This document shows positions 6,226 through 35,698 of a stretch of 64,000 nt of DNA, in pieces (the first letter of the stretch is position 1; each line of letters begins with the position of its first letter). The stretch spans positions 5,081,286 to 5,145,285 of the forward strand of contig AP018178.1 of the NCBI GenBank assembly GCA_002368195.1, in the 5' to 3' direction. Origin of the DNA: Calothrix sp. NIES-2100 (GTDB taxonomy: Bacteria > Cyanobacteriota > Cyanobacteriia > Cyanobacteriales > Nostocaceae). Under the pieces are notes generated by a model. That model worked only from the letters and a program-made list of their open reading frames with translations, was not told where the DNA came from and searched no databases. The translations under genes and the position numbers were made by a program.

Positions 6226-9200
6226 ATGGCGCGAGAATCTAGTAAAGGCCCTGTAATTCAAAAGCGAGTTAAGCGTCTGTTAGAGGCGTTGCTTTGTTTT
6301 GCAGATGGGGAAGTTGAGGAAGATAAGTTTAAGATTAAGTACCGCTGGACAGAAGAAGACAGCGCTAACCCCAAGCTGACTATTGAAACAACGCTGGTAA
6401 GGTTGGAGGCGTTGACTGGTGCAGTCCGGAACCCCACCCCTAACCCCTCCTCCGAAGTTTGCTCAACGGGGGGAACCCCCGCACGCAACTTCTCTCCGCA
6501 AGCGAGGAGGGGAAAAGATGATGGGGGGGAGAAGTTAACTAAAGCGCAAATTCGAGAAGCGCTGAATTTACTGAAGGATTTTGTGAAAATTCTGGAAGAT
6601 AACCGGATTCATACCCAGGGTTCTGATGACTGGCACTTTACTTTAAAGCTATGGTCAAGGGATAAAGAAAAGAACCTGAAACGGTTTGATGAGGTATGGG
6701 AAAGCAACAAACCAAAGAAATCTAAAGAACTAGAAGCTAATTACACTGAAGATGAGGGTGTTGCTGTTGTACCCCAAACTAAGCTGGCAATATTTCAAGC
6801 GCCACCTTTACCTGCACACTTTGTTGAACGCCCAGAATACAGCGATGAATTAAAGACGCGCTTCCTCACAGAAGATAATCGCACTTTGGTAATTACGGCG
6901 ATTCACGGTTTGGGTTCTGTGGGTAAATCGACCTTAGCCGCAGCTTTAGCAGTAGATGCAGAAGTACAAACGCGGTTTTGTGATGGGATTTTGTGGGCTA
7001 CATTAGGTCAAAAGCCTGATGTGCTGTCTTTAATTAGTGGCTGGGTGCAAGCGTTAGGAGACTATAGCTTTAAACCTACCAGTGTAGAAGCTACTTCTAC
7101 TCATTTACGGACGCTGCTTTATGACAAAGCTGTGTTGTTAGTGGTTGATGATGCATGGAATACGCAAGATGCACAAGCGTTTAATGTGGGTGGGGTGCGG
7201 TGTCAGGTTTTAGTCACAACTCGTGAAGGGGCAATTGCCGAAGCCTTAGCAGCTAGCACGTACAGCCTGGATATCATGAAACCAAGTCAGGCTATGGCAT
7301 TGCTGACGAAGAAATTAAGACGCGAAATTACAGGTGCAGAACGTCAGTCAGCCGAAAATTTAGCTCAAGGCGTTGGTTATCTCCCCCTAGCCTTGGAACT
7401 TGCAGCCGCCGAAGTTGCTAGTGGTACAACTTGGGATGAATTATTGGCGGATATTCGGCAAGAGGTAGCGAGATTAACAAGTTTTGACAGACCGGAAGCG
7501 GAAGAAATTACCGATGAGGCGAGTTTAAAACGCCTGAGTTTAACGGCATCATTAAATTTGAGTGTCAAGCGAATGCCTCAAGAAAAGCAGCAGCATTTTG
7601 CTCGGTTAGGGGTGTTGCCGGAGGATGTCAACATTAATAAGATGATGGCAGGGACGCTGTGGGGAATGGGTGAGCGTGATGCTGCTAAGATGTTGCAATA
7701 TTTACGGAATAAGGCATTGCTATTAACAGGAGTACCCCTTGCTGATGGTACGCCTACCTATCGGTTACATGACTTATTCCATGATTTAGCCTGTAATTTG
7801 TTAACTGCTGCGCCACAGCCAAAGCGGATAGGAGATTTGCCAGGGTTAGGTTTACAACTTGTTGATGCTCACGCTGCTTTTTTGGAGAAATATCGGCAGA
7901 AAATACACAAGAATTTATGGCATACCTTGCCTAATGATGGTTACATTCATCAGCATTTAGTTTGGCATTTGGAGAAAGCGGGACGAGTTGAAGAGATTCA
8001 CTCTTTATTGCGGGAAGAGTCGGCAACTGGTAACAATGGCTGGTATGAAGCACGAGAAAAATTAGCACAAACTGGGGGTTACATTACAGATATATCTCGT
8101 GCTTGGGAATTAGCAGAAGCGAATTGGAATGAATCAACTACGCCGCAAGTGGTGGGTTGGCAATGTCGCTATGCTTTGATTACGGCATCTCTTAATAGTT
8201 TGGCAGCTAATGTACCAATAGAACTGCTGGTTGCGTTGGTCAAAAATAATCTGTGGACTGCTGAACAAGGACTAGCTTACGCTTTGCAAAACCCTGAACC
8301 AAAGCAGAAAGTTGATGCCTTTGCACAACTAGCCAACTATTTGCCGCCAAATTTAGAAAGACTAGCACTGTCAGAAGCACTCGTTACTGCTAGGGCGATT
8401 CATGATGAGTCTGATCGCGCCTCTGCCCTCAGTGTCTTAGCCGACAAACTACCACAAGAGTTGTTGCCAGAAGCACTCAGTGCTGCCAAGTCGATTCAGG
8501 ATGAGTATTCTCGTGCCCTAGCCCTCAGTTCCCTAGCAGAAAAACTGCCAGAGGTATTGCCAGAAGCTCTCAGTGCCGCCAGGGTGATTCAAGATGAGTA
8601 TTCTCGCGCCTTAGCCCTCAGTTCCCTAGCAGAAAAACTGCCAGAGGTATTGCCAGAAGCTCTCAGTGCCGCCAGGGTGATTCAAGATGAGTATTCTTGG
8701 GCACAAGCCCTAAGAGCCTTAGCTAAAAAACTGCCACCAGAATTATTGACAGAAATACTCAGTGCCGCCACATCGATTCAGGATGGGTTTTCTCGCGCCA
8801 ATGCCCTCAGTGCCTTAGCAGAAAAACTGCCACCAGAATTATTGCCAGAAGCACTCGCTGCCGTCAGGCCGATTCAGGATGAGTATTATCGTGCCAATGC
8901 CCTCAGTGCCTTAGCAGAAAAACTGCCACCAGAGTTATTGCCAGAAGCACTCAAAGCCGCCAGGGCGATTCAGGATGAATATTCTCGCGCCTTAGCCCTC
9001 AGTGCCTTAGTAGAAAAACTGCCACAAGAATTATTGCCAGAAGCGCTCGCTGCCGCCAGGGCGATTCAGGATGAGTATTCTCGCGCCTTAGCCCTCAGTG
9101 CCTTAGTAGAAAAACTGCCACAAGAATTATTGCCAGAAGCACTCGCTGCCGCTAGGGCGATTCAGGATAAAAAATATAGTGCTGATGTCCTCAGTGCCCT

Positions 9201-9780
9201 AGCAGAAAAACTGCCAGAAATATTGCCAGAAGCACTCGCTGCCGCTAGGGCGATTCAGGATGAGTCATATCGCGCCTTAACCCTCAGTACCTTAGCAGAA
9301 AAACTGCCAGAGTTATTGCCAGAAGCACTCGCTGCCACTAGGCCGATTCTGAATAAGGAATATCGCGCCTCTGCCCTCAGTGCCTTAGTAGAAAAACTGC
9401 CACCAGAGTTGTTGCCAGAAGCGCTCGCTGCCGCCAGGGCGATTCAGGATGAGTATTTTCGCGCCTTAGCCCTCAGTGCCTTAGCCGATAAACTGCCACC
9501 AGAGTTGTTGCCAGAAGCACTCGCTGCAGTCAGGCCGATTCAGGATGAGTATTATCGCTCCTCTGCCCTCAGTGCCTTAGCTTTGGGGCTGTCACAAATG
9601 CTGAATGCTAAACTTTTCCCTCTGTGGCAAGATACACTTAATGAGTTATCTGCTCGCACTCGTCCCCATTTGCTGCGAGATATCAAAGCATTGTTTCCAG
9701 TTATATTTGCATTAGGTGGCAAAGTTGCAACAGCAGAAGTTGCCCGTGCAATTATGGATGTAGGGCGATGGTGGAAATAA
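6226..9780 (+). CDS. STAND-class NTPase (NB-ARC domain) with a C-terminal array of about 19 ~32-33-aa alpha-helical repeats
   Basis: P-loop 'GLGSVGKSTLA', Walker B 'LLVVDDAWN', 'VLVTTRE', and the GxP motif 'GYLPLALE' together define NB-ARC. From about 8400 to 9590 the DNA is a tandem ~96-99-bp repeat encoding 'LPxELLPEALAAARAIQDEYSRALALSALAEK'. The N-terminal ~225 aa are unassigned and contain a low-complexity insertion. Confidence 0.85.
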   Translation: MARESSKGPVIQKRVKRLLEALLCFADGEVEEDKFKIKYRWTEEDSANPKLTIETTLVRLEALTGAVRNPTPNPSSEVCSTGGTPARNFSPQARRGKDDGGEKLTKAQIREALNLLKDFVKILEDNRIHTQGSDDWHFTLKLWSRDKEKNLKRFDEVWESNKPKKSKELEANYTEDEGVAVVPQTKLAIFQAPPLPAHFVERPEYSDELKTRFLTEDNRTLVITAIHGLGSVGKSTLAAALAVDAEVQTRFCDGILWATLGQKPDVLSLISGWVQALGDYSFKPTSVEATSTHLRTLLYDKAVLLVVDDAWNTQDAQAFNVGGVRCQVLVTTREGAIAEALAASTYSLDIMKPSQAMALLTKKLRREITGAERQSAENLAQGVGYLPLALELAAAEVASGTTWDELLADIRQEVARLTSFDRPEAEEITDEASLKRLSLTASLNLSVKRMPQEKQQHFARLGVLPEDVNINKMMAGTLWGMGERDAAKMLQYLRNKALLLTGVPLADGTPTYRLHDLFHDLACNLLTAAPQPKRIGDLPGLGLQLVDAHAAFLEKYRQKIHKNLWHTLPNDGYIHQHLVWHLEKAGRVEEIHSLLREESATGNNGWYEAREKLAQTGGYITDISRAWELAEANWNESTTPQVVGWQCRYALITASLNSLAANVPIELLVALVKNNLWTAEQGLAYALQNPEPKQKVDAFAQLANYLPPNLERLALSEALVTARAIHDESDRASALSVLADKLPQELLPEALSAAKSIQDEYSRALALSSLAEKLPEVLPEALSAARVIQDEYSRALALSSLAEKLPEVLPEALSAARVIQDEYSWAQALRALAKKLPPELLTEILSAATSIQDGFSRANALSALAEKLPPELLPEALAAVRPIQDEYYRANALSALAEKLPPELLPEALKAARAIQDEYSRALALSALVEKLPQELLPEALAAARAIQDEYSRALALSALVEKLPQELLPEALAAARAIQDKKYSADVLSALAEKLPEILPEALAAARAIQDESYRALTLSTLAEKLPELLPEALAATRPILNKEYRASALSALVEKLPPELLPEALAAARAIQDEYFRALALSALADKLPPELLPEALAAVRPIQDEYYRSSALSALALGLSQMLNAKLFPLWQDTLNELSARTRPHLLRDIKALFPVIFALGGKVATAEVARAIMDVGRWWK
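8400..9590 (+). repeat. Intragenic tandem repeat (about 96-99 bp x about 19) inside the NB-ARC gene
   Basis: Near-identical DNA units are visible, for example 'gattcaggatgagtattctcgcgccttagccctcagt...ctgccagaagc'. Confidence 0.9.
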
Positions 9781-9950
9781 TTTGTAATTCGTAGTACCAT
9801 CCGGGAAGCGCAAAGCGCTACGTAATTCGTAATTTACACCTCAAAAGTATGGAGTGCGATCGCCTTCCTAGCCTCAAAAGTATGGAGTGCGATCGCTGCT
9901 CGACAAAATGCGATCGCGGTTCACTACTCCAGAAAATGCGATCGCTCAAC

Positions 9951-10319
9951 CTATTCTTCAATCCAAGTACTTAAAAATACCACCTGATTCTGCATTTCTG
10001 CTGCTGACTTAGCTGCAATTAACCTCAAAATCCCGCGCATTAATTCGCCCACTGAGTAACGTTGCTGTTGTACTAAAATCATTCCAGCATGGGATTGTTC
10101 TTCGCTCAAAAATTTACTGTGTAAACGGTAGAAATCCCTAATATTAGCACTATATAAAACTAGACCTTGCTCTGTTGCCCATCTCAGTTGTTCTTCATCG
10201 GTATAGCCCAGTCTATTAACACTTAAACTTGTGATTACATCTACACCACGATTTTGTAGAGCCATAACTAAAGAATGTGCCGTAGAATCTTCATCCATGT
10301 ACAATCGAATTTGGCTCAT
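9951..10319 (-). CDS. DUF5615-family PIN-like protein (putative toxin of a DUF433/DUF5615 pair)
   Basis: 122 aa. It starts 4 bp inside the stop of the upstream DUF433 gene (ATGA overlap). The composition is typical of Mut7-C/PIN-like DUF5615 proteins. Confidence 0.6.
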   Translation of the reverse strand: MSQIRLYMDEDSTAHSLVMALQNRGVDVITSLSVNRLGYTDEEQLRWATEQGLVLYSANIRDFYRLHSKFLSEEQSHAGMILVQQQRYSVGELMRGILRLIAAKSAAEMQNQVVFLSTWIEE

Positions 10320-10609
10320 GAAAGTTTTTGAGTCTGATGCAGTTTTTCTAATCTCTCAGCTTCGGCTGCTTCGGCTGCAATATCAGCATCAATTTCTTCA
10401 CGGTTCGCATGATAATAAGCTAAAGCTGCATAAACCTGGGCTAAATTTAGATGATTAATTTGCTCGGCAATTTCTTCTGCACTGTAACCTTGTTTATACC
10501 AAATAGCTATACGCCGGACTGTCACCCCTGTACCAGCAATAATCGGGCAACCTCCGTGTACTTCAGGATTATGATTAATTAGTGTGCCGATATCGGTAAT
10601 AGTTGCCAA
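10316..10609 (-). CDS. DUF433-domain protein (putative antitoxin partner)
   Basis: 97 aa. The 'GGCPIIAGTGVTVRRI' core matches DUF433, and translational coupling to the downstream gene is a hallmark of this TA-like pair. Confidence 0.6.
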   Translation of the reverse strand: MATITDIGTLINHNPEVHGGCPIIAGTGVTVRRIAIWYKQGYSAEEIAEQINHLNLAQVYAALAYYHANREEIDADIAAEAAEAERLEKLHQTQKLS

Positions 10610-10820
10610 AACTTATTCTCCCCATTATTTCACGCTCAATATCATTATTACAAAGTTAGTATTCCAGAAAATGCGATCGCTTCTCGACAAAATGCGATCG
10701 CTTATCACTCAGAGGCGATCGCTTAACCTTGTAAGATTCGCACTCCATCTCTTCGCTGCGATTTTTACCACCAAGCGATGCAGCATCTACACAAAATCAG
10801 CTTTCTTTACCAAAATCACC

Positions 10821-11050
10821 TCATCCATAGAGAACCTCATCGCATTCATGACCAACCAGATCGGGTTGTTTATCAATGAGTACTCATCCATAGAGAAGGC
10901 GATCGCATTCATGACCAACGCGATCGGGTTGTCTATCAACGAGTACTCATCCATAGAGAAGGCGATCGCATTCACAACCAACGAGATCGGGTTGTCTATC
11001 AATGAGTACTCATTCATACAGAACCAGATCTCATTCACAACCAACGAGTT
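10821..11050. repeat. Tandem ~60-bp repeat x4, each unit carrying HIP1
   Basis: Unit: catccatagagaaggcgatcgcattcatgaccaacgcgatcgggttgtctatcaacgagtact. Both strands translate into repetitive ORFs, which makes it unlikely to be coding. Confidence 0.8.
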
Positions 11051-11327
11051 AATTTTCTGCGCCAAAAGGCTGCACCAGGTGATGGGATATGGCGCTGCTC
11101 CAAGTTGGGGAACTCCAAGGAGCGATCGCTATTGATTACGCATAATTACAGAATTATATCCCCAAAATATTGTTAAAAAAAGCCAAATATTTGTGATTTT
11201 CCCTGAGCCGGAAGACTGCTGTTTTAAGACAAGCTAACAGTAGTACTGCGAAGCGGAGTTCAAAATTCAAAATAAAGTTGATTTTTTTACGCCGTGCTGT
11301 CCGAGAAAAGTTCATGAGGAGTAATCT

Positions 11328-11807: not shown

Positions 11808-14282
11808 TTATCCAACAGTGGGAGTCATTACTTTATCTCCAAAGCTTTGACTTCCTTGCATATACTCCTCTAAACTAAAGGAATCTACTTGAATCGCATC
11901 ATTACGGGCAAACTCTGCTTCACATATAAGTTCAACGTCTTTCTCGCTAATTACCCCAGCTTTCAAGGCTGCGGAAATTAACTCATCGGGTTTTAGGTGT
12001 GGTAGTTTCCCCGCATGGCTAGCATTTTTGATAGTTTTGATGATTGGTTCAGCTTGGGATAACAAGGTGAAAGCTTTTTCCAAGCGTCCCAATGCTTCAT
12101 TGCTGCTGCGGGGAATATGAATACCTGCGGTGAGGCGATCGCGTATTTCTCCTGGAGTTTGTAATTTATGCGCAACTTCAGCACCAAGTTTGTCATCAGG
12201 TAATGAACCAATGGGATTAAGTCGCCACCACCAAGTCAAGAAATTACCTAATACTGGCACAAATAAATTCTGGAAAATCCCCTCAAACGCTAACTGCATC
12301 TGCGCAAAAGCATATTGCATCGCCCAATGCACAAAAGGTAAGTCTTCGGGTTTTCGTCCTTCGGCTTCAAAACGGCGCAGAGTAGCAGTTGCTAGGTACA
12401 TCCAGGTGAGAATATCCGCAAACCTTCCTGTCAGTTTCTCCCGTCGCTTCAAGGTTCCACCGAAGGAGAACATCGCAATATCAGTTAGTAAGGCAAAGGT
12501 AGCCGCAGCCCATTGTAATTTGCGGTAATATTTAGCTGTCGCACCTGACACTGGTGAAGCTGCTAAATTCCCACGGGTAAGATAAAGAAGTTTGGCGCGG
12601 AAACCATTACGCACCGTCAACCCTAAATGATGCCAAAAAGCGCGATCAAAAGCAGTCACATCTGATTGACTTAGGGCTGTAATTTCCTGATAGACGTAAG
12701 GATGACAGCGAATCGCCCCTTGTCCAAAAATCATCAAGGTACGGGTGAGAATATTTGCACCTTCTACGGTAATGGAAATTGGAGTGGCTGTATAAATATT
12801 TGCCAATAAATTTCTGGGGCCTCGGCAAATTCCCGCACCGCCCATAATGTCCATACCGTCGTTGATGATTTTACGGGATAATTCTGTCAAACTGTATTTG
12901 GCGATCGCCGAAATTACCGCAGGTTGTTCGCCTTGATCTACCGCACCGCAGGTATAAGTTCGCGCTGCTTCCATTAAGTAGGTTAAACCGCCAATTCTCG
13001 CTAAAGGTTCTTCTACACCTTCAAACCGACCAATCGCTAAACCAAATTGTTGTCGTACCACAGCATGGGCGCTGGTAACTCTCGCTACTAACTTCGCCAC
13101 GCCCGTACAACTAGCCGGGAAGCTAATTCCCCTACCTGCGGCTAGGCTTTGCATCAACATTTTCCAGCCATTACCAGCCTGTTCCACACCGCCGATAATT
13201 TGCTCAACAGGGATAATAACGTTATGTCCTTCTGTAGGAGAATTGTAAAAAGGTACACCCATTGGGTCATGCCTTCTACCCATAATTACGCCCGGTGTGT
13301 CGGTGGGGATTAAAACGCAGGTAATGCCAACTTCTTTACCTTTGCCTAAGTAATTTTCCGGGTCGCGTAATTTAAAAGCTAGTCCTAAAAGAGAGGCGAT
13401 CGCAGCTAAAGTAATATATCGTTTCTTCCAATTCAACCGCAGATAAAGCTTACCATCTTCACCTCTAAATACCGTTCCTTCTGACTTAATACTAGCTGCA
13501 TCTGACCCAGCCGTCGGTTCTGTCAGCGCAAAACAAGGAATTTCCTCACCCCTGGCGAGGCGGGGTAGGTAATAATTTTTCTGTTCCTCTGTTCCATAGC
13601 GGAGTAATAATTTTGCGGGGCCTAATGAATTTGTTACGCCAACAGTCGCCACATGGGTAAAAGAACGCGATGCTAACTTAGTCATCACATTGCTGTAGGC
13701 GAAATTAGAAAATCCCAAACCGCCATACTCTTGAGGAATCATCATTCCTAAAAAGCGTTCTTGTTTGAGATAGTCCCAAACTTCAGGCGGTAAATCCTTG
13801 CGGCGGTAAATTTCCCAATCACTCACCATGCGACAAACTTGTTCAACGGGACCATCAAGAAAGGCTTGCAATTCTGGTGTAACTAGAGGATATGGTTCTT
13901 GATTAATTCTGTGAAAATTTGGTTTACCTGAGAAGAATTCCCCATCTACCCAAACATTACCCGCTTCAATAGCTGCGCGTTCGGTATCAGAGATTTTGGG
14001 TAATAAATTAAAAGCTTTAATGGCTTTGATTAATGGTGATGTGATGATATTTTGGCGGATAATTGGGATATTGAAAATAAGAGCGATCGCACCAAAAATC
14101 ACCCAAGTCCAAATAGGGGCGTGAACAGTTACTAGTAATGCTGCGAAATATAGCGACCAAACCCATAAAGGAACGCCGATGTAACCAAGAAACAGTATGA
14201 ATAAAATAGACGCGGCGACGCGGAGACTGAGGGACGCGGTGATTATTTGTAAGTAGTTTTGTGAAAAAAAGGAAGTAATCAT
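11808..14282 (-). CDS. fadE: Acyl-CoA dehydrogenase, long membrane-anchored FadE type
   Basis: 824 aa. The N-terminal TM helices are followed by 'SDTERAAIEAGNVWVDGEFFSGKPNF', which resembles the E. coli FadE N-terminal region. The C-terminal part has an acyl-CoA dehydrogenase fold. Confidence 0.75.
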   Translation of the reverse strand: MITSFFSQNYLQIITASLSLRVAASILFILFLGYIGVPLWVWSLYFAALLVTVHAPIWTWVIFGAIALIFNIPIIRQNIITSPLIKAIKAFNLLPKISDTERAAIEAGNVWVDGEFFSGKPNFHRINQEPYPLVTPELQAFLDGPVEQVCRMVSDWEIYRRKDLPPEVWDYLKQERFLGMMIPQEYGGLGFSNFAYSNVMTKLASRSFTHVATVGVTNSLGPAKLLLRYGTEEQKNYYLPRLARGEEIPCFALTEPTAGSDAASIKSEGTVFRGEDGKLYLRLNWKKRYITLAAIASLLGLAFKLRDPENYLGKGKEVGITCVLIPTDTPGVIMGRRHDPMGVPFYNSPTEGHNVIIPVEQIIGGVEQAGNGWKMLMQSLAAGRGISFPASCTGVAKLVARVTSAHAVVRQQFGLAIGRFEGVEEPLARIGGLTYLMEAARTYTCGAVDQGEQPAVISAIAKYSLTELSRKIINDGMDIMGGAGICRGPRNLLANIYTATPISITVEGANILTRTLMIFGQGAIRCHPYVYQEITALSQSDVTAFDRAFWHHLGLTVRNGFRAKLLYLTRGNLAASPVSGATAKYYRKLQWAAATFALLTDIAMFSFGGTLKRREKLTGRFADILTWMYLATATLRRFEAEGRKPEDLPFVHWAMQYAFAQMQLAFEGIFQNLFVPVLGNFLTWWWRLNPIGSLPDDKLGAEVAHKLQTPGEIRDRLTAGIHIPRSSNEALGRLEKAFTLLSQAEPIIKTIKNASHAGKLPHLKPDELISAALKAGVISEKDVELICEAEFARNDAIQVDSFSLEEYMQGSQSFGDKVMTPTVG

Positions 14283-14432
14283 AGCTTTACCTTTTTACTA
14301 ATCCCATGTGCAATTAAATATTTGTCGTGATGACTCAGACAAAGTAATAAGACACGGGGATTGGGAGATATTTTCTTTATGTCTTTCTCTCCGCGTCACC
14401 GCGTCCCTACGTCCCCGCGTCATCTTCAGTCC

Positions 14433-15614
14433 CTAAATCATCAAATTCTCAAACACCGCCGCAGCACCCATTCCCCCGCCTACACACATCGTCACCAAAC
14501 CATAACGGACGCTACGCCGTTTCATTTCGTGGAATAAGGTAGCTGTAAGTTTCGCACCAGTACAACCGAGGGGATGTCCTAAAGCGATCGCACCACCGTT
14601 AACATTGACAATTTCTTCATTAAGTCCAAGTTTGCGAATGACAGCCAAGCTTTGAGCTGCAAAGGCTTCGTTAAGTTCGATTAAACCAATATCGTTTAAA
14701 GTAAGACCAACTTGTTTTAAGACTTTGGGAACAGCTTCCACCGGGCCAATACCCATCACTTCCGGGGCGACACCTGCAACCGCATAGCCTAACATTTTAC
14801 CCATTGGACGGACATCGAGCATATGTACCATGCGATCGCTCATCACGACTGTTGCAGCTGCACCATCGGACATTTGCGATGAATTACCGGCTGTCACCGC
14901 ACCACCCATGCGAAATACAGGCTGCAATTTCATCAAGGCTTCCATACTGGTATCTGGACGCGGCCCTTCATCTACCGTCAATACCTTTTCTATCGGTCTG
15001 GGAGTACCATCAACATAGAGAACTTCCTGAACTTTTAGCGGTACAGTTTCCTCTGCAAACCGCCCTTGTCTAATAGCAACCACAGCCTTTTGGTGTGAAC
15101 GCAGCGCAAAAGCATCCTGTTCTTGACGAGAGATTTCGTAATGCTGCATGACATTTTCGGCTGTAATCCCCATCGTGCAGTAAACCTTGGGTATATCCAC
15201 CATCATGTCTGGATTGGGGGCTAAATAATGCCCGCCCATTGGAATCAAACTCATCGATTCCGCACCACCAGCCACAATTACCTCTGCGTGTCCTGCCATA
15301 ATTGCTTGAGATGCGATCGCAATACTTTGCAATCCCGAAGCACAGAAGCGATTCACAGTCATCCCGGCGACGGAATCAGGTAACCCTGCACGTTGAGCAA
15401 TTAACCGTCCAATATTAAACCCCTGTTCTGCTTCTGGAAAAGCACAACCCATAATGACATCATCAATATATACAGCTTCTAAATCTTTAACTTTTTCAAT
15501 TGCTGCTTTCACAACAACTGCACCCATATCATCAGGACGCATATTATGTAGAGTTCCTCGTGGTGCTTTGCCTACAGGCGTGCGAACGCTACTCACTATA
15601 TACGCTTCTTTCAT
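14433..15614 (-). CDS. fadA: Acetyl-CoA C-acyltransferase (3-ketoacyl-CoA thiolase)
   Basis: '[17 protein letters not shown]' is a thiolase N-terminus, 'NRFCASGLQ' carries the active-site Cys, and the C-terminal 'GCTGA' motif is present. The start is placed at the ATG with a GGGAG Shine-Dalgarno, about 15614. Confidence 0.85.
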
Positions 15615-15774
15615 AAATAACTCCCACCTATTGATAAATAAGGCAAAAGAGATAATTCTCTTCCTCCTCTTCCTTCGTGTTCTTTGCGCCTTTGCGGTTC
15701 GTTTAAAAAAATTCAGAACGAACCGCGAAGACACGAAGGTCGCAAAGGTAAGAGGGATTAAAAGGGTTTTTGCG

Positions 15775-18144
15775 TTAGTTTCTGAGAGGCTTCTTAGTTT
15801 TCAAAGTATGAGCAAATCTTTCTTGCGTTTTTGGTTGGTGTAATAGTGGTAAAAAGGATTCTCTCTCCAATTTTGATAAGTACTCTTCATCAACCAAAGC
15901 AGGCGCAGTTAATTCTCCTCCAGTCATCACATACGCCAAACGACTAGCTAAATAATGGTCATATTCAGAAATATAACCACCCTGCTGCATCACATAAGCT
16001 GCGTGTTCCAACATCGCCCGCGCCGGACGACCTAGCACCATGATGGCGTTACGTTCTACTGGTGGTGTGTAACCAACGTGATCTAAACACAGCACTTCCT
16101 CTTTCGCCACAGATAAAAGCCTGTCGGAATTCATTACAATCTTAGTTGATGGAGAAAGGAAACCTAATTCCTGTCCTTCATGGGCGCTACTGGAAACCTT
16201 CGCCATTCCAACAGTTTCAAATACTTTCCTTAAGAAGGGTTGAATATCTTGTGGTGATTCGCTGGCGGCTTTGTCAACCGCCCAGGTAACCATGCGCATA
16301 ATCCCGCCAGCCCCAGGAATCAAACCTACGCTGAGTTCTACTAATCCGATGTAAGTTTCCGCCGCTGCGACTACATGGGGACAAGCTAAAACTAATTCAC
16401 AACCTCCACCTAACACCCGCCCAACAATTGCAGCCACAATTGGTTTGGGGAAATATTTAATCCGTTGCAGTAATGCTTGGAATTTGACAATTAAATCGGC
16501 AATACCTTTACCGTTATCTGTTTGCGCCAACATGGCCATTTCTGCCAAATTCGCGCCACCAGAGAAGTTTGCACTATCGTTTCCAATGATTAAACCTCGG
16601 TAATCACTGTTTTCAATAATATCTAATACCGCAGCTAATCCTTCTACGACTTTTAAAGTTAGGGTATGTCCTTTGGAATGAAACTCATATAAAACAACTC
16701 CATCACCCAAGTCTAACAAAGAAGCTTCTGAATTTTCCCACAAGATATTTTTGGCATCTTCTTTGATAGCTGGTATATTAATTTCGTCTGTTGGGGCTTT
16801 GGGTTGTTCGCTAATACATACAGCACAGGCTTCAACTACCTTTTGTTCCGCCCAAGATAGTCGGTCTTGGCGATAGAAACTATGCACACCAGAATTGTGC
16901 ATCTTTTCTACCCACTCTGGCACAGATATATCAGCAGCTTTCATGTCTGCTAATACAGTTTCAAAGCCGAGGACATCCCAAATTTCAAAGGGGCCGAGTT
17001 CCCAACCGAAACCCCAACGAATCGCCCTGTCTATATCTGCGGGTTTATCAGCAATTTCGGGGATGCGACGGGCGCTGTAACCTAAGATTTCTAAGGTGGA
17101 TTGGCGGAAGAATTTACCAGCACGACCAGAATCGTGGTAGAGTTTGCGTAGGCGATCGCCTAAATTACCAATTTTCCCAATTCCCTCAATATCCCCTAAA
17201 TCCAGCGGTTTCGCGGCTTCATACCCTAACGTTGTCGGATTAAGAGAAAGAATTTCCTTACCTTGCTTCTTGTAAAATCCTTGACCTGTTTTTGCGCCCA
17301 ATGTCCCAGTTTCTACGAGTTTCTTCATTAACTGCGGAACTCGCAAAACCTCCCGGCTTTCATCTTGAGGAATCGCTGGGTAAAGGTTTTTCGCTACATA
17401 CAGCAATGTATCTAACCCTACTACATCAGCAGTGCGGAATGTAGCTGATTTTGGTCGTCCAGCGATTACTCCAGTTAACGTATCGATTTCTTCAATTGTG
17501 TAACCTTGCTCAGTCACACCCTTAATCCCCAACATCGTTGCATACATCCCGATGCGGTTGGCAATAAAGTTAGGTGTGTCTTTAGCTACTACCACACCTT
17601 TACCCAGATGTATCCTCCCAAACCATTGCATTCTTTCCAGGATTTGCAGATCAGTATCAGGTGTAGGAATTAACTCTAATAATTTAAGATAGCGAGGAGG
17701 GTTAAAAAAGTGAGTACCTAAAAACCGCTGACGAAAAGCTTCCGAACGCCCTTGAGCAATTTCATTGATGGGTAAGCCACTAGTATTAGTAGACACCACA
17801 GCATCATCACGAATTGTACTTTCGATTCGCGCCATCAAATCTTGTTTAATAGCGAGATTTTCGACTACAACTTCAATTACCCAATCAACATTAGCAATGC
17901 GGTGGAAATGTTCGTCAAAATTTCCCAAAATAATCCTGCGCGCTGTTTTTTCTGTAAAGAAAATTGGTGGAGATTGCTTGAGTGCTTTTTTAAAAGCTGT
18001 TTCCACAACCTCGTTTTTATTGTCACCTTTAGCCGCAATATCCAATAAATGAACTGTTAAGCCCGCATTCGCTAAATGTGCGGCGATTTGAGTTCCCATC
18101 ACCCCCGCACCCAATACTGCTGCTGTTCGGAACGGCTTAAACAT
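15775..18144 (-). CDS. fadN: Bifunctional 3-hydroxyacyl-CoA dehydrogenase / enoyl-CoA hydratase (FadN-type domain order)
   Basis: The N-terminal 'AVLGAGVMGTQIAAHLANAG' is a Rossmann fold (3HCDH_N), and the C-terminal half is a crotonase fold. At 789 aa it has the same length and architecture as B. subtilis FadN. Confidence 0.8.
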   Translation of the reverse strand: MFKPFRTAAVLGAGVMGTQIAAHLANAGLTVHLLDIAAKGDNKNEVVETAFKKALKQSPPIFFTEKTARRIILGNFDEHFHRIANVDWVIEVVVENLAIKQDLMARIESTIRDDAVVSTNTSGLPINEIAQGRSEAFRQRFLGTHFFNPPRYLKLLELIPTPDTDLQILERMQWFGRIHLGKGVVVAKDTPNFIANRIGMYATMLGIKGVTEQGYTIEEIDTLTGVIAGRPKSATFRTADVVGLDTLLYVAKNLYPAIPQDESREVLRVPQLMKKLVETGTLGAKTGQGFYKKQGKEILSLNPTTLGYEAAKPLDLGDIEGIGKIGNLGDRLRKLYHDSGRAGKFFRQSTLEILGYSARRIPEIADKPADIDRAIRWGFGWELGPFEIWDVLGFETVLADMKAADISVPEWVEKMHNSGVHSFYRQDRLSWAEQKVVEACAVCISEQPKAPTDEINIPAIKEDAKNILWENSEASLLDLGDGVVLYEFHSKGHTLTLKVVEGLAAVLDIIENSDYRGLIIGNDSANFSGGANLAEMAMLAQTDNGKGIADLIVKFQALLQRIKYFPKPIVAAIVGRVLGGGCELVLACPHVVAAAETYIGLVELSVGLIPGAGGIMRMVTWAVDKAASESPQDIQPFLRKVFETVGMAKVSSSAHEGQELGFLSPSTKIVMNSDRLLSVAKEEVLCLDHVGYTPPVERNAIMVLGRPARAMLEHAAYVMQQGGYISEYDHYLASRLAYVMTGGELTAPALVDEEYLSKLERESFLPLLHQPKTQERFAHTLKTKKPLRN

Positions 18145-18163
18145 ACATCACCCTTCCTTGTTC

Positions 18164-18195
18164 GATTTTAGATTTTAGATTTTAGATTTTGGATT
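18164..18195. repeat. Heptamer tandem repeat (GATTTTA)x4
   Basis: gattttagattttagattttagattttggatt. Confidence 0.9.
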
Positions 18196-18338
18196 AAATT
18201 AACTACCTAACTCGCAAAAAATCACGCTACTGACGCAAAAACTCTTTATAACTCTCTTCCCTCCGCGCCCTCTGCGCCCTCTGCGGTTCGTTTCCTAATT
18301 CTCTTTCACACCTTGAACCTTCCCAGCCAAACTAAATC

Positions 18339-20474
18339 TTACGAATTAAGAGATTGCGCAAACGTAGGACATGAAAAAGTCTGATTTTCTGGACATAAAT
18401 CATTTACTTTTTCTATTGTGACACCTCCCGCCCTTTGTACCCTCTTTTCTTCATACATTGCATTAATTACTTGAGTAAACACCCGTAAAATCTTGCCTCG
18501 ATTTACCTCCTGAGTAGATGTCAACATTCCATTCTCAACAGTCAGGCTATAATTAATAAGCTGAAACCTTTTTACCGTTGACCAATGAGGTAAATGACAA
18601 TTCGCTTCATCCACCAATGCTTGATATAAAGCGATAATACAAGGATGTTGCAGCAAGTCTTCAGTAGGTAAATCAATTCCACTTAATAAAGCCTGCTGAT
18701 GCAAGTTTTCTACATCTGGAAAAATCAGCATAGAACAAAACTTACAATCAGCACCTACAGTAACAGCGTGCGCTATTAAAGGAGATTTTTCCAGCTTGCT
18801 TTCTATCGGTTGTGGCGTGACATACTTTCCAGTGGAGAGTTTAAAGCGGCTTTTCTTCAAACCAGTAATCTTGAGAAAACCCTCAGAGGTAAATTCTCCT
18901 AAATCGCCTGTATGTAACCAACCTTGAGCATCAATTAATTGTTGGGTAGCTGCTGTATTTTTATAATAACCTTGGGTGATGTAGGGACTTCTCGTGAGAA
19001 TTTCCCCATCTTCAGCAAGAGTCACTTCCACCCCAGCAATTGGTACACCTACGGTTCCTGGGCGGTTGAATTGACTGCGATTACAAGCTACGGCTGAACT
19101 GGTTTCAGTTAAACCATAGCCTTGGAGAATTTTTATTCCCGCAGCTGCAAATAAATTCACAATTTCTGGTTTTAAGGCTGCACCTCCACTAAGTAAGTAT
19201 TTAATATTCCCGCCAAAAACAGCACGCCATTGAGAAAAGATGAAACTATCTGCCACTTTCAGCATCAAAGCATCTTGATGTTTTGGTGTTTTACCCAATT
19301 CATATTTTTGGGCTAATTTTACTGCCCACTTCATCATCGATTGGGATAAGGGAAGATAAAATTGTCGGGCGGAAATAGCATTATGCGGAGACAGTAAATG
19401 TGCTTTTAAAGTTCTCCCCGTTCTCGACAATTTGATAGTGGCTTCCCGCAGGGTAGCAAGTGCTGTTTTCCCCTTCCAGGTGCTGGGAAACCTCAAGGGT
19501 AAGCTTACCCGGTTCTCCGTTACTTTTTTACTTTGTGTCTGACTTTTTTCTCCTGCTTCTATCAGCTTGGCATAAACTTTTTCTAACAGCAAAGGGACTG
19601 TAGCAAATATTGTCGGCTTAACTTCTTTCAGGTGTTTTAAAACCCGATTAGAATTACTAAAATAAATGCTGTGTCCATAGTTAATATGACCGTAAATAAA
19701 GACGCGAGCTAAAACATGAGTTAATGGTAGAAATGAAAGAATTACCTCCTGCGATCCAAATCCTAAATTAGGAATTCCTGTAAACATTGCTAGGGCATTT
19801 GCAGAGAGATTTTCATGGGTGAGCATTACCCCTTGAGGTTCGCCTGTAATTCCCGGAATGTAAATAATAGTTGCTAAGTCATCAGCTATTATTTTTGATT
19901 GGAGTTCGTTTACAGTTAATTCAGAATTTTTTGCTCTGCCTTGAGAGCGAATTTCCTCCAAAGAAAATACTTTCATCCCTGTATCATGTTGTTGATGCCA
20001 TTCTTGAGGAACATCAGCAACTATTATTGTTTGGACATGAGTTACATTTTCCAGATAAGGAATAATTTGTGCCAGCAATTCTAGATTAGAAATAATCAGC
20101 GCTTTTGCTTGTGTGTGCTGCAAGATGAAAATAATGTGTTCAATTGTCTGAGTTACATCAATTGGCACATTTACCAAACCTGCGAGTAAAGAACCCATGT
20201 CAGCAATGCAAAAGTTAACATCGCTGTGCATGAGTAAAGCAATACAATCGCCTGCTTCTAGTTCCAAATCCAGCAAGCCTAAGGCTAATTCCGCCGCCGC
20301 TGTGCGCAATTCGTGATTAGATAAAGGTTGCCAGCCTGTATCTGTAAACTGGTTTAAAGCGCGGGGGTTAGGAAAGCGATCGCACGCTTCATCTAATAAG
20401 GTAAGCAAAGTCCGCCCTAAGACTACTTCTCCAGAATTTGGAGGCGCTCTATAAGTCTTATTTGTAGATAACAT
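18339..20474 (-). CDS. Long-chain fatty-acid--CoA ligase (AMP-binding superfamily)
   Basis: 'GYGLTETS', 'TGDLG' and the 'YIPGITGEPQGVMLTH' (AMP) motif. At 711 aa it carries a C-terminal extension. Confidence 0.75.
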   Translation of the reverse strand: MLSTNKTYRAPPNSGEVVLGRTLLTLLDEACDRFPNPRALNQFTDTGWQPLSNHELRTAAAELALGLLDLELEAGDCIALLMHSDVNFCIADMGSLLAGLVNVPIDVTQTIEHIIFILQHTQAKALIISNLELLAQIIPYLENVTHVQTIIVADVPQEWHQQHDTGMKVFSLEEIRSQGRAKNSELTVNELQSKIIADDLATIIYIPGITGEPQGVMLTHENLSANALAMFTGIPNLGFGSQEVILSFLPLTHVLARVFIYGHINYGHSIYFSNSNRVLKHLKEVKPTIFATVPLLLEKVYAKLIEAGEKSQTQSKKVTENRVSLPLRFPSTWKGKTALATLREATIKLSRTGRTLKAHLLSPHNAISARQFYLPLSQSMMKWAVKLAQKYELGKTPKHQDALMLKVADSFIFSQWRAVFGGNIKYLLSGGAALKPEIVNLFAAAGIKILQGYGLTETSSAVACNRSQFNRPGTVGVPIAGVEVTLAEDGEILTRSPYITQGYYKNTAATQQLIDAQGWLHTGDLGEFTSEGFLKITGLKKSRFKLSTGKYVTPQPIESKLEKSPLIAHAVTVGADCKFCSMLIFPDVENLHQQALLSGIDLPTEDLLQHPCIIALYQALVDEANCHLPHWSTVKRFQLINYSLTVENGMLTSTQEVNRGKILRVFTQVINAMYEEKRVQRAGGVTIEKVNDLCPENQTFSCPTFAQSLNS

Positions 20475-20913
20475 TTTATCCCAGAAGATTTTATGACTCT
20501 TCCCCTCGTTATCAGTTATTAATCATCGTTTGCTTCAAGTTCGGTTAATTTCTGCTAATTCAAAACTGTACGCATCCCCCTGTCACAGAGTCTCCGTGTT
20601 AGTTTGAATTACAAGTGTTCATCCTCACTTGATATAAGTCTCTATTGAATAATCAGTTATATTCAGATACTTCAGCGAAACTAAATGCCAGACCAGGTAA
20701 TGTCTAAGATGCCGACTTCTGATACCCAAGTCCTGTTGTTTGCCAAATTTCTCCTCGCGATTTCGGATTTATTAAAGACAGAACAAGTGTTTATTTAAGA
20801 TATAGGTCTATTTCATACCTAATGCCTTAAACGTAGCTTATCTGTACTAATAATAATGTAGATCATGGTGGGGATCAACGACAAGCTTTGTATCTTTTTC
20901 GCAAAGAAACCCT

Positions 20914-21828
20914 TCACATAGTAAAAGTTTCAGTATGTAAACTAGGTATTTTTATCAGACATTTAGATGCAGGATTGTCTATTTCTCCATCTAAATGCTT
21001 TTCTAGCCAATGTTCTAAATCTACAAGTACTTTTTGGTAATTGATATCCTGGTGGAAGTCGTGATAGTCTCCAGGATACTCATAGCTTTCTTTGTCCGGG
21101 AAGCTGACTTTTTGGAAAAATGCCACACTACCTTCTGGCGGTGTAATCCTATCGCCACTGCTATACATAATTAACAAAGGGACTTGTAACTCACTCGCAT
21201 GGTTTTCAACCCATTTTTCAGTCGCGAAAAACTCCGCAGCCAGTCGTGCAGTTCCATACTCGTGACGTAATGGATCTTGGGTGAGAATATAATTCTGACC
21301 GCGTAAACTTGTGCCCTGATCAAGACCGACTTTCAGGCTAAAGTTTGGCCAGACTTGTGAAAGCATTCGCCCCAATGCAACTTTCAGCACAGGAAGGTTA
21401 ACTTTTCCCAAAGCAGGTGCTGTGAGAATTAGCCCTTGCAAACTTTGCGGAAAGCGTAAAGCATAATCAACTGCGATCGCAGCTCCTAAACTATGACCCC
21501 ACAAAAAACATGCACAACTCGGCCCTCGTTCCTGAATCCTGGTTAAAAAGGTATGTAAATCTTCTCGTAACTCTGCCCAGGAATTAATATGTCCTCGTTG
21601 TCCAGGCGATCGCCCATGTCCCCGCAGATCAAAAGCGTAGACAGCATAACCCAAAGGCAGTAAATGCTGCACAGCATCGTTAAACAATCCGCTATGGGCA
21701 CCGAACCCGTGTACCATAGCAATCACTGCCCTTAATTCTCCCTCTGGCTGCCAACTTTGGTAATAAAGATTTAGCCCTCCTGCTCCCGTGAAGGTGCCTT
21801 CAATGTGTGTCATTGCTATACCTACCAA
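20914..21828 (-). CDS. Alpha/beta-hydrolase (lysophospholipase / monoacylglycerol-lipase-like)
   Basis: 'HGFGAHSG' ... nucleophile elbow 'GHSLGA' (GxSxG), 304 aa. Confidence 0.7.
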   Translation of the reverse strand: MVGIAMTHIEGTFTGAGGLNLYYQSWQPEGELRAVIAMVHGFGAHSGLFNDAVQHLLPLGYAVYAFDLRGHGRSPGQRGHINSWAELREDLHTFLTRIQERGPSCACFLWGHSLGAAIAVDYALRFPQSLQGLILTAPALGKVNLPVLKVALGRMLSQVWPNFSLKVGLDQGTSLRGQNYILTQDPLRHEYGTARLAAEFFATEKWVENHASELQVPLLIMYSSGDRITPPEGSVAFFQKVSFPDKESYEYPGDYHDFHQDINYQKVLVDLEHWLEKHLDGEIDNPASKCLIKIPSLHTETFTM

Positions 21829-31253: not shown

Positions 31254-31985
31254 TTTTTATTACCTATGATTGGATTTAATGAAAATACTTGTTGGTCAAG
31301 AGTAAAACGTGCAGCAAAAAAACGGCCAAGGGGTAACAAAAAAGAAAAGCAATAAGCTTTAACCCCTTACCCTTTACCCTTTAACCCAAAGCAAATTAAG
31401 AGTTGAAATGTTTGAACCGAAAAGTATTGGATTTAGCCATAGTTATCATAATATTTGTCAATAAATAAATTTAATAAAATATTAAAAGTACTTTTAAGAG
31501 ATTTTTAAAGATTATATAAAGACGTGTTTAGCTTGTGACTAGATGGTGTAAAAGTGCCTTCATGAAGATAGATAATCCAGGATACAAATCTCTATTTTCA
31601 TGGCTAATTTTTCAATGAAAATACCTTGATGCTCTAAATCTGTAAATTCGTTTTACAGAGAAAATTTGATAGCTAAAAAATATTTGTCTACTCGCACCCA
31701 CAAATGTTGTCAAAATACTAAATAATCACAGCTTGATGCATTTAGGACTTACGCAAAAAACCTCTCAAACTCTCATTACCACCGAAGTGCTGATCTAAGG
31801 AAGCCTTATCTGGTGACTTGTGTGTGTATACTCTGTGTCCGTAAGTCCTGGCATTGTGGAGCGTCTTGAATTCCGCTGATGCTTCTAATATTGTGGAATA
31901 CCAACTATTTTCAAAGTTCAGTGCTATTACAGTAGTTATATAAAATACTAAGTGTGAAGCTGAAGAAAATACTTTAACAATAAAT

Positions 31986-32408
31986 ATGTCAATCTTAGTT
32001 TCAATACTCGACTTTCTAGTTTCTATTAATGGAGTAGGTAAGCTATGGGCTGCTGATGGTCAATTTTTGGGAGTGCTATCAAGTGACCGATATGACTCAA
32101 ACTCAATCAACAATCCTGACGGGATGTATGGTGGGACGTATGGAATTTACAGTATCAGCAATCCTTACGGGGTATATGGCGGGACGTATGGAATTTACAG
32201 CCCTTACAATACTTATTGCATAAATCCGCCTTTTGTTGTTTACCAAGGTCAAGTAGTGCTGGTTCTATCAAAAAACGCTAATTTTCAGAGCAATGGTGTA
32301 CCAGTTATTGACCCTGATCTTCTAGTGAGTGTATACGCAAAAATTGGCCAGCCACAAAACCCTTTTTATTCATCTGTAGCTTCCAAGTTCGATTCTGGTT
32401 GGGGTTGA
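31986..32408 (+). CDS. Hypothetical Gly/Tyr-rich small protein (140 aa)
   Basis: The internal repeat 'NPYG(M/V)YGGTYGIYS' occurs twice. No recognisable domain. Confidence 0.35.
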   Translation: MSILVSILDFLVSINGVGKLWAADGQFLGVLSSDRYDSNSINNPDGMYGGTYGIYSISNPYGVYGGTYGIYSPYNTYCINPPFVVYQGQVVLVLSKNANFQSNGVPVIDPDLLVSVYAKIGQPQNPFYSSVASKFDSGWG

Positions 32409-32476
32409 ATTTATAATTTCTCAGCGATCGCTTTACATGGAATGTAACTAAAATTTTTAGTTATATAAAGTACAGA

Positions 32477-33073
32477 TTATTTGCGCTGATTGCGGATAGC
32501 CTGCTCAAATTCAACAACAGCATCGTACTGATCGGGTATGGCGATATAGTGCAGCAGCAATGCACGATCTAATTCGGGAAAAAACCCACTCCGGTTTACT
32601 TCTTGATACTCGCCATCCTCAGTAAGCCGGAATATTTTAATTTCGTTAGATTTCCAAAACCAAACTTCAGGGACTTTTTTGGGTTTGTACAACTCTGTCC
32701 TGTTAATTGTGCCACTGGTGACAATGACTTCAATCACAATGTCAGGAACTTCTTTTTCTGTGCCGATACTATAAGACTCATCTGGTGTACCTGAAGCATA
32801 GCCTGGTGCTTCTAGTGTGAAACCTCCACGTTTGTAAAATCGAATGCCCAACTGTTTCATGTAAGCTTCTAGCAGCAAGCCAAGGGTACTTTTCACTTTC
32901 TCATGTTTTTCACCAATGGGAGCCATAATTTCTAATATCCCTGACAAATAAGACAGTCGGACATTGCGGTTGTCCTCTAACTGTGCCTCAATTCCTTTGA
33001 ATTGCTCCCACGAAACATCCTTGAGAGTTACCAGTCTTTCTTCGGTGAAATACTCTACAACTGGGATGCTCAT
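32477..33073 (-). CDS. Uma2-family (DUF820) PD-(D/E)xK endonuclease-like protein
   Basis: 198 aa. The composition and 'EVIVTSG' PD-ExK-like core are typical of this family, which is abundant in cyanobacteria. Confidence 0.55.
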   Translation of the reverse strand: MSIPVVEYFTEERLVTLKDVSWEQFKGIEAQLEDNRNVRLSYLSGILEIMAPIGEKHEKVKSTLGLLLEAYMKQLGIRFYKRGGFTLEAPGYASGTPDESYSIGTEKEVPDIVIEVIVTSGTINRTELYKPKKVPEVWFWKSNEIKIFRLTEDGEYQEVNRSGFFPELDRALLLHYIAIPDQYDAVVEFEQAIRNQRK

Positions 33074-35224: not shown

Positions 35225-35335
35225 GGTTCTACTTGGTAGTTGTCAATAGTCAAGAGTCAATAGTCAGTTGTTATTGGGCATGGGGCATTGGGCATTGGTG
35301 ATTGAGTTTTTTGCTAATTCTGCTTTGTAGCTTTA

Positions 35336-35668: not shown

Positions 35669-35698
35669 CCATGCCCAATGCCCAATGCCCCATCCCTC

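Follow-up and report, generated by a model that had tools for sequence, protein, structure and literature searches.

The stretch of DNA considered here (64,000 nucleotides of the chromosome of the cyanobacterium Calothrix sp. NIES-2100, referred to as the window) contains on its minus strand, at positions 11808-21828, a cassette of five genes for the oxidation of fatty acids. In the direction of transcription they encode an alpha/beta hydrolase of the monoacylglycerol lipase (MGL) family, a divergent long-chain acyl-CoA synthetase-like ('FadD') protein of the ANL superfamily (hereafter, the ligase), a bifunctional enzyme of the FadN type, a degradative thiolase (FadA) and a long acyl-CoA dehydrogenase of the Escherichia coli type (FadE; table 1). 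All five co-directional open reading frames (ORFs) lie where the initial annotation of the sequence had placed them. The cassette, real and under-appreciated, is best described as a probable beta-oxidation operon of ordinary make-up in a phylum where none was expected. It probably serves lipid catabolism and has long resided in the chromosome, its orthologue being the fadD-fadN-fadA-fadE cluster of Chlorogloeopsis fritschii.

The FadE protein exhibits the Acyl-CoA_dh_N, Acyl-CoA_dh_M and Acyl-CoA_dh_1 domains (PF02771, PF02770 and PF00441, respectively), followed by ACDH_C (PF09317, E = 9e-98, residues 524-802), and scores 1049 bits against NF007000 (PRK09463; cutoff 600). Its catalytic Glu507 (in ITVEGANILTR) aligns with the base found in the IFEGTNEILR segment of ACAD9/VLCAD, and a TEPxxGSD motif is present at residue 254. 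Across 811 columns its identity to FadE of E. coli K-12 (b0221) is 46%, in an alignment that covers the N-terminus, starting at residue 20 of the Calothrix protein and residue 4 of the E. coli one, and the two share the hydrophobic N-terminus, the acyl-CoA dehydrogenase core with its catalytic Glu and the ACDH_C domain. In particular, residues 22-80, with Kyte-Doolittle peaks of approximately 2.1, are the counterpart of residues 1-56 of E. coli FadE, which supports, but is not proof of, the presence of a membrane anchor. Against the narrow NF038187 FadE_coli model the score is 897 bits, below the 1300-bit cutoff. The genomic setting also differs, since fadE of E. coli lies apart from fadBA, and FadB, with the hydratase domain first, is used instead of FadN.

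In the FadN-type protein the domains follow the order 3HCDH_N (residues 8-190), 3HCDH (193-292) and ECH (ECH_1, 494-620), i.e. the dehydrogenase precedes the hydratase, the reverse of FadB. The protein matches the NF052272 Staph_FadB model end to end (residues 6-789 on positions 4-752 of 752) with 654 bits, a score below the 999-bit cutoff of this exception model. The NAD-binding motif GAGVMG is found at residues 12-17; His145 and Glu157 of the dehydrogenase (THFFNP...LLELI) align with GMHFFNP...LVEII of E. coli FadB (6tnm), and Glu583 (GGGCE) and Glu603 (LVELSVG) of the hydratase align with GGGCE and LPETKLG of the same enzyme. The architecture of FadN and the gene order fadN-fadA-fadE are those of Bacillus subtilis and Staphylococcus. 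However, FadE of Bacillus is a protein of approximately 590 residues, whereas that of Calothrix, of approximately 820, is of the E. coli type with ACDH_C and reaches only 116 bits against NF058590; the Calothrix cassette also differs from the Bacillus/Staphylococcus type in having no linked FadR/TetR regulator.

The thiolase scores 457 bits against TIGR01930 (cutoff 240) and narrowly misses two equivalog cutoffs (560 versus 633 and 531 versus 567 bits). It retains Cys131, Asn355, His387 and Cys417, in the motifs NRFCASG, NEAFA, GHPLG and MCVGGG, according to the numbering of the ORF, from which 40 should be subtracted in the likely protein. Indeed, Met41 of the ORF (MKEAYIV) is the most likely start of translation, because the resulting 393 residues equal the median length of 57 orthologues, the closest of which begin with MKEAYIV. 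The hydrolase, for which Met6 is probably the true start (placing that end of the gene at 21813), belongs to Hydrolase_4 (PF12146, E = 1.6e-61, 208 bits; cutoff 27), with a predicted triad formed by Ser113 (in GHSLG), Asp226 and His256. The closest structures in the PDB are MGLs, namely that of Palaeococcus ferrophilus (6qe2, E = 7.5e-41) and those of Mycobacterium tuberculosis (Rv0183, 6eic) and human; the family, the GHSLG elbow, the Asp and the His are common to the first two and the Calothrix protein, and the triad residues are aligned with theirs. Linkage to a beta-oxidation operon is, unlike in the MGLs compared, a feature of the hydrolase of these cyanobacteria.

Thus, the domain order of FadN, the thiolase, the E. 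coli-type FadE and the lysophospholipase-like GxSxG hydrolase upstream, all recognized in the initial annotation, are borne out by the Pfam and NCBIfam matches and by the residue alignments, and four of the five proteins (FadE, FadN, FadA and the hydrolase) have kept their catalytic residues. The ratios of non-synonymous to synonymous substitution rates (dN/dS), computed against nine Nostocales relatives, are 0.05-0.07 for FadA, 0.06-0.09 for FadN, 0.08-0.14 for FadE, 0.08-0.15 for the hydrolase and 0.15-0.22 for the ligase, values that indicate purifying selection on each of the five genes.

The distribution of the cassette was established from a FadE-based scan of one genome per GTDB species, which yielded 244 relatives; the best 80 loci were examined, and their cyanobacterial part amounts to 64 loci. 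When every ORF in the 64 loci was clustered, only five families were found to recur around FadE (64 loci), namely FadA (57), FadN (52), the ligase (50) and the hydrolase (36), which, with FadE itself, are those of the Calothrix cassette; most absences fall at contig ends. The order ligase-FadN-FadA-FadE is maintained in 50 of the 64, across several taxonomic orders, and does not vary among the loci. In Nostocales, Acaryochloris and Myxacorys the hydrolase gene immediately precedes that of the ligase, and in several others (Xenococcaceae, a Synechococcus metagenome-assembled genome (MAG)) it immediately follows FadE. Carriers are found among Nostocales, Pleurocapsales/Xenococcaceae, Thermosynechococcaceae, Phormidesmis, Pseudanabaena, Tumidithrix and Leptolyngbya-like groups (Pantanalinema, Scytolyngbya, Elainellales, Kovacikia and Myxacorys), and include the culture-collection strains Acaryochloris marina MBIC11017, C. 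fritschii PCC 6912, Fischerella thermalis PCC 7521 and Xenococcus PCC 7305. In lineages such as Myxacorys and Elainellales the gaps between the genes shrink to 2-50 bp or give way to overlaps, and in Calothrix NIES-2100 they measure 150-440 bp; the close spacing in some lineages is what an operon would be expected to show.

The cassette is not new, being already on record with expression evidence in C. fritschii. In Ho et al. 2019 (PMC6424891), the fadD, fadN, fadA and fadE genes of C. fritschii PCC 9212 (UYEDRAFT_05556 to 05553), i.e. the same four genes in the same order and the direct orthologue of the Calothrix cluster in a different genus, are listed under 'b-oxidation'. The ratios of their transcripts in far-red over white light given there are 8.6-11.4 (wild type), 14.9-16.7 (rfpB mutant) and 46.5-70.6 (rfpC mutant). 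The induction is independent of RfpABC, and transcripts for fatty acid and lipid synthesis are less abundant (about 10-60%) in far-red light. Neither the unusual ligase nor the occurrence of the cluster across the phylum is discussed in that paper. In the sister strain C. fritschii PCC 6912, the cluster is preceded by the hydrolase gene, and the proteins are approximately 80% (FadE), 79% (FadA), 77% (FadN) and 59% (ligase) identical to those of Calothrix.

In contrast with this record, beta-oxidation genes are said in a review of 2023 and a paper of 2025 never to have been reported in cyanobacteria, or to be absent from them. According to the survey of 129 KEGG genomes by Figueiredo et al. 2021, fadB is missing from all of them and fadE, fadN and fadA from 'most', from which the absence of the pathway was concluded. 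FadN substitutes for FadB and, therefore, the fadB criterion would miss the cassette. The proposal, in the initial annotation, of a genuine and intact-looking set of beta-oxidation genes in a cyanobacterium holds, in contradiction with the statements of absence made between 2021 and 2025.

How the cassette came to reside in this genome can be addressed from its composition, its surroundings and its phylogeny. The guanine plus cytosine (GC) content of its genes (0.40-0.47) and that of their third codon positions (GC3, 0.32-0.38) are both within the range of the 26 other genes of the window, and in relative synonymous codon usage (RSCU) the four core genes correlate with these other genes at 0.76-0.83, values that rank with the best of the window. 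HIP1 sites (GCGATCGC) number 82 in the 64 kb, versus 0.3 expected; 11 of these fall in the 10 kb of the cassette, i.e. 1.1 per kb versus 1.28 per kb in the window. No deviation in GC or codon usage of the 11.8-21.8 kb region relative to its flanks was, therefore, found, the values being native. The tRNA and Rfam scans returned no match near the cassette, and no Pfam integrase or transposase domain was detected in the flanking ORFs scanned. The genes nearby (a PanC-Cmk fusion, SodB, and AcsF- and HemN-like chlorophyll genes) are typical of cyanobacteria, and the flanks of the cassette, namely the HemN-like/AcsF genes on the FadE side or SodB on the hydrolase side, are in part common to six Nostocales genomes (Tolypothrix FACHB-123, Calothrix brevissima NIES-22, C. 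anomala, Nostoc T09, Nostoc 106C and Mojavia), both flanks being kept only in NIES-22 and one side in the others. The synonymous substitution rates (dS) of the flanks (0.26-0.36, 0.53-0.69 and 0.95) were judged equal to those of the cassette (0.22-0.45, 0.52-0.64 and 0.67-0.84).

In the neighbour-joining tree of FadE, which carries no support values, all cyanobacterial sequences form one clade, with sub-clades that follow taxonomy (Nostocales; Pleurocapsales; Acaryochloris with Thermosynechococcaceae; Leptolyngbya-like groups). Its sister is formed by Balneolales/Rhodothermaceae sequences (55-60% identity), followed by those of Bdellovibrionota (52-57%). On one Rhodothermaceae contig (L064, 114-10624) FadN and FadA are adjacent and a long FadE lies 4 kb away, with identities of 55% (FadN), 64% (FadA) and 58% (FadE); in a Balneolaceae locus a gene for a TetR-family regulator (L063, 9306-9941) precedes FadE. 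The genes of the Calothrix cassette thus fall within a cyanobacterial clade, no role outside beta-oxidation is known for them, and FadE and FadN keep their catalytic residues. An old cyanobacterial operon with many losses is the most economical reading of these sequence comparisons, and an ancient exchange with a Rhodothermota lineage is possible.

Other explanations of the presence of the cassette in this genome were considered and rejected. Recent horizontal transfer finds no counterpart in the GC profile, GC3, RSCU, HIP1 sites, tRNA/Rfam matches, or synteny and dS of the flanks, all of which gave negative results. A genomic island was likewise discarded, there being no deviant GC content or codon usage, border tRNA or integrase, depletion of HIP1 sites, or absence from close relatives at the same site. 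Contamination or misassembly was dismissed as well, the cassette being part of the Calothrix chromosome contig and rich in HIP1 sites.

The ligase is the component that departs from expectation. The initial annotation credited the locus with everything needed to activate and oxidize fatty acids; the oxidation set is intact, but activation is not supported, the ligase having lost hallmark residues of the ANL superfamily. The protein matches PF00501 AMP-binding (E = 3.7e-60) and PF23562, and shares with the canonical FadD/COG1022/FAA1-type acyl-CoA synthetases, which are relatives of Aas, the AMP-binding and AMP-binding_C_3 domains, the ANL fold, the YGLTE of motif A5, the TGD of motif A7 and the GKYV segment. 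It differs from them in the loss of the Ser/Thr and Lys of the P-loop, in the replacement of the A10 Lys and the A8 Arg, and in an insertion at approximately residues 310-373. Namely, the P-loop (A3) reads YIPGITGEPQG, with Gln214 at the position of the canonical Lys, in place of YTSGTTGxPKG; A10 reads TSTQEVNR, with Glu656 at the position of the catalytic Lys, in place of TPTLKxKR; and Leu539 occupies the position of the Arg of the A8 motif ITdRKK. Alignment with the A-domain of carboxylic acid reductase (CAR) also sets a Glu of the ligase at the A10 Lys. All three motifs are near-invariant across 123 canonical representatives, 33-47% identical, retrieved by a full HMMER search of 1.84 billion representatives.

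The replacements are conserved among the relatives of the Calothrix protein. The approximately ten representatives nearest to the query are all degenerate, and among the 119 closest homologues of the ligase, of which the named members are all cyanobacterial, the P-loop Lys position is a Gln in 96 and the A10 Lys position a Glu or Gln in 103, while 110 have neither Lys nor Arg at either site. Both lysines are kept only in five Pleurocapsales sequences out of the 44 orthologues derived from the loci, and the orthologues of Acaryochloris and Thermosynechococcaceae have an insertion of approximately 32 residues within the P-loop. By contrast with these losses, A5 (QGYGLTETS) and A7 (GWLHTGD) are retained, with Y453, G454, L455, T456, T522, G523 and D524 invariant in 46 sequences, and so is the FKLSTGKY segment, invariant in the orthologues. 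The AlphaFold model (predicted local distance difference test (pLDDT) score of 72, with low confidence around A5 and A8) has the ANL fold and, at approximately 310-373, a disordered insertion, and Foldseek relates it with probability 1.00 to 4CL, luciferase and CAR A-domains. The template modelling (TM) scores are 0.78 with the thioester-conformation structure 4g37_B, 0.74 with 5bsr (AMP and CoA bound) and 0.74 with 8i8d (an acyl-ACP synthetase with acyl carrier protein, ACP), versus 0.63-0.67 with ATP-bound structures, a weak hint that the modelled protein fits the thioester conformation better.

The A10 Lys is required for the adenylation half-reaction in the ANL superfamily, as established with mutants of acetyl-CoA synthetase, luciferase and other members. 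Because of this requirement, and of the loss of the A3 and A10 motifs, the protein was not filed as a confirmed acyl-CoA synthetase. Judging from these alignments, it appears to define a cyanobacteria-specific, cassette-linked ANL subfamily with a conserved loss of adenylation residues, which does look new. As to its origin, the canonical representatives nearest to it, where named, are from Acidobacteriota or Bacteroidota MAGs (most carry a generic name or none) when a derivation from Aas is considered. No ligase is linked to FadE in the outgroup loci (Balneolaceae and Rhodothermaceae), and the linked ligase may, therefore, have been recruited within cyanobacteria.

The scheme that we infer for the lipid-catabolism operon, from the substrate and the direction of flux to the electron acceptor and the role in the cell, is as follows. 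The hydrolase would free fatty acids from lyso- or monoacyl-lipids, and the acyl chain would be joined to CoA, nominally by the adjacent ligase, whose degenerate motifs leave the route a puzzle. Membrane-anchored FadE would then convert the acyl-CoA into the enoyl-CoA, with electrons directed towards the quinone pool, FadN would hydrate the enoyl-CoA and oxidize the product with NAD+, and FadA would cleave off acetyl-CoA. By analogy with C. fritschii, expression probably sets in under limited photosynthesis, in far-red light or shade, and membrane lipid would be burned for energy and carbon. Many carriers, such as C. fritschii PCC 6912, F. thermalis PCC 7521, A. marina, Pleurocapsa PCC 7327 and Kovacikia, are presumably users of far-red light (with chlorophyll f or d) or inhabitants of shade, mats or soil.

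Several points weigh against this scheme. Most directly, the P-loop Lys, A10 Lys and A8 Arg on which canonical acyl-CoA synthetases rely are missing from the ligase, and the entry step, namely fatty acid activation, is unaccounted for. Moreover, cyanobacterial membrane lipids are largely polyunsaturated, and auxiliary enzymes would be needed for their degradation; in the surroundings of the cassette in the 64 loci, no linked gene was found for ETF, ETF-QO, FadH/dienoyl-CoA reductase, a separate isomerase, a regulator or a transporter. The promoter and terminator scan of the 10.5-23.5 kb region gave counts no higher than those of shuffled sequences, the FadE tree has the limit stated above, and the literature searched contains no enzyme assay, labelling or knockout of any member of the cluster in any cyanobacterium. 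A gene of the Old Yellow Enzyme (OYE) family found elsewhere in the window was considered as a candidate FadH and rejected, its 355-residue product consisting of the Oxidored_FMN domain only.

Among the alternatives, the one that touches the operon most closely concerns the ligase: the FadE/FadN/FadA cycle would be functional, while the linked protein would have been repurposed and would no longer be an ATP-dependent acyl-CoA synthetase. This possibility, which modifies the catabolic reading and is not exclusive of it, is on the whole unlikely, yet it deserves attention. The protein might transfer acyl groups to CoA from acyl-ACP (made by Aas) or another donor, might catalyse the thioester half-reaction only, or might bind and deliver fatty acids. 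The conserved replacement of motifs that canonical members keep, the P-loop insertion in Acaryochloris and Thermosynechococcaceae, purifying selection with invariant A5, A7 and FKLSTGKY segments, the established role of the A10 Lys and, in C. fritschii, the induction of the orthologue together with fadN, fadA and fadE all favour a retained, altered function, to which the similarity of the model to thioester-conformation structures may add weak evidence. Conversely, the five Pleurocapsales orthologues with both lysines suggest that the ancestor was probably a normal ligase, a compensating residue might exist (e.g. the frequent Lys three positions after the conserved Arg, in ...NRAK/NRGK), the confidence of the model is modest and low near A5 and A8, and we know of no biochemical precedent for an ANL-fold acyl-ACP:CoA transacylase. 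The more specific proposal that the ligase is a new functional type of the ANL fold, in which ATP-dependent adenylation has been abandoned and the acyl-ACP pool or another activated donor is coupled to CoA, is regarded as a doubtful one on the sequence evidence. It is also improbable, and rather more so, that the enzymes act on fatty acids other than those of the membrane or run in the synthetic direction, with phytol- or hydrocarbon-derived acids, the hydroxy fatty acids of glycolipids, or polyhydroxyalkanoate (PHA) or lipopeptide precursors as the compounds involved. In favour of this, the sequences do not reveal which substrates are preferred, the ligase is atypical, cyanobacteria make many fatty acid-derived natural products, and the thiolase falls just short of two equivalog cutoffs. 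However, no linked polyketide synthase, nonribosomal peptide synthetase, PHA synthase or reductase gene was found in the 64 loci, and the occurrence of the cassette in both heterocystous and non-heterocystous orders indicates that it is not specific to heterocyst glycolipids. FAD-dependent FadE of the E. coli type is a catabolic dehydrogenase. In the C. fritschii transcript data the orthologues are up while fatty acid synthesis genes are down.

The remaining alternative, which was that of the initial annotation, is that the cassette is a horizontally acquired mosaic, combining a Firmicute-like fadN-fadA-fadE order with a proteobacterial FadE, which entered this cyanobacterium or its near ancestors. 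The patchy distribution across the phylum, with model strains lacking the cassette, the variation of the flanking genes among distant carriers, the position of the FadE of a Pseudanabaena MAG amid crown groups, and the affinity of the closest non-cyanobacterial FadEs (Balneolales, Rhodothermaceae and Bdellovibrionota), which leaves room for an ancient transfer that had an early cyanobacterium as recipient or donor, can be cited in its favour. Nevertheless, acquisition of this kind is highly improbable: composition, codon usage and HIP1 density are native, signs of mobility are missing from the scans described above, flanking genes of either side are conserved in Nostocales relatives with the same dS as the cassette, and cyanobacterial FadE is monophyletic with each major group clustering. 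As for the mosaic, the nearest outsiders of FadE, FadA and FadN are found together, at similar identity, on a single Rhodothermaceae contig and, therefore, point to one shared affinity and not to differing donor phyla, Firmicute for one part and proteobacterial for another. The reading as a long-resident lipid-catabolism operon is the one retained here.

Other features of the window are included in table 1. Just downstream of FadE, HIP1 sites occur in runs with a spacing of 21-33 bp; an unannotated ORF in the same area contains a 63-bp tandem repeat (3.6 copies, 89% matches) and is 69% identical to its counterpart in Tolypothrix FACHB-123, versus 94-97% for the neighbouring genes. Between the cassette and the AcsF/HemN-like genes lies the gene for a 1184-residue STAND/NLR-like protein (with EAD4, NB-ARC and APAF-1 helical domains), which is probably an anti-phage defence gene and is fast-evolving (69-71% identity, dN of approximately 0.14 versus approximately 0.03 for its flanks); it is adjoined by the gene for a small DUF5615 protein, a possible component of a toxin-antitoxin system. 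On the other side of the cassette an RTX/type I secretion-like cluster is found, and further on succinyl-CoA synthetase-like genes adjoin a RelA/SpoT homologue; these synthetase-like genes may bear on the use of the acetyl-CoA produced by the cassette.

Table 1. Positions of the genes of the beta-oxidation cassette and of other features in the window.
Feature	Position	Strand	Product length	Domains or remarks
FadE, E. coli-type long acyl-CoA dehydrogenase	11808-14282	-	824 aa	assigned by Pfam, NCBIfam
FadA, degradative thiolase	14433-15614 (mechanical ORF to 15734)	-	likely 393 aa	Thiolase_N/C, TIGR01930
FadN-type bifunctional enzyme	15775-18144	-	789 aa	3HCDH_N, 3HCDH, ECH
Divergent ANL-superfamily ACSL-like ('FadD') protein	18339-20474	-	711 aa	AMP-binding, AMP-binding_C_3
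Alpha/beta hydrolase, monoacylglycerol-lipase family	20914-21828	-	304 aa (ORF)	Hydrolase_4
STAND/NLR-like protein	6226-9780	+	1184 aa	EAD4, NB-ARC, APAF-1 helical domain
HIP1 runs and 63-bp tandem repeat	9856-9945, 10673-10722, 10820-11048			HIP1 sites 21-33 bp apart
Small DUF5615 protein	9951-10319	-		DUF5615
Unannotated ORF	10584-11135			63-bp tandem repeat
RTX/type I secretion-like cluster	29148-42010			
RTX-repeat protein	29148-31253			RTX repeats
HlyD-family adaptor	33326-35224			
ABC exporter	35699-38641			C39 peptidase domain; weak, below-cutoff N-terminal cyclic-nucleotide-binding match
CAP-domain protein	40130-42010			three CAP domains, RTX repeats
OYE-family protein	50255-51322		355 aa	Oxidored_FMN only
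Succinyl-CoA synthetase-like genes and RelA/SpoT homologue	55398-57859	+		ATP-grasp_2 beta subunit, CoA-binding alpha subunit (synthetase-like genes)
Succinyl-CoA synthetase-like genes and RelA/SpoT homologue	57972-60242	-		as above

The breadth of the cassette in the phylum and the loss of residues in the ligase are the parts that deserve follow-up. Statements made up to 2025 hold that cyanobacteria have no FadB, FadE or FadI, and the feeding of labelled fatty acids in studies of natural products, as well as the construction of free-fatty-acid strains, rest on them; a complete and selectively maintained FadN/FadA/FadE set is present in a sizeable minority of the phylum, so that labelling and engineering results obtained in Synechocystis and Synechococcus should not be extended to the carrier lineages. 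Fatty acid respiration by cyanobacteria becomes directly testable, candidate strains being known, and the breakdown of lipids may help to power acclimation to low or far-red light. The degenerate ligase poses a biochemical puzzle of its own: if it did couple acyl-ACP or another activated donor to CoA, it would be the missing link that feeds the fatty acids of an acyl-ACP-only phylum into beta-oxidation under light limitation.

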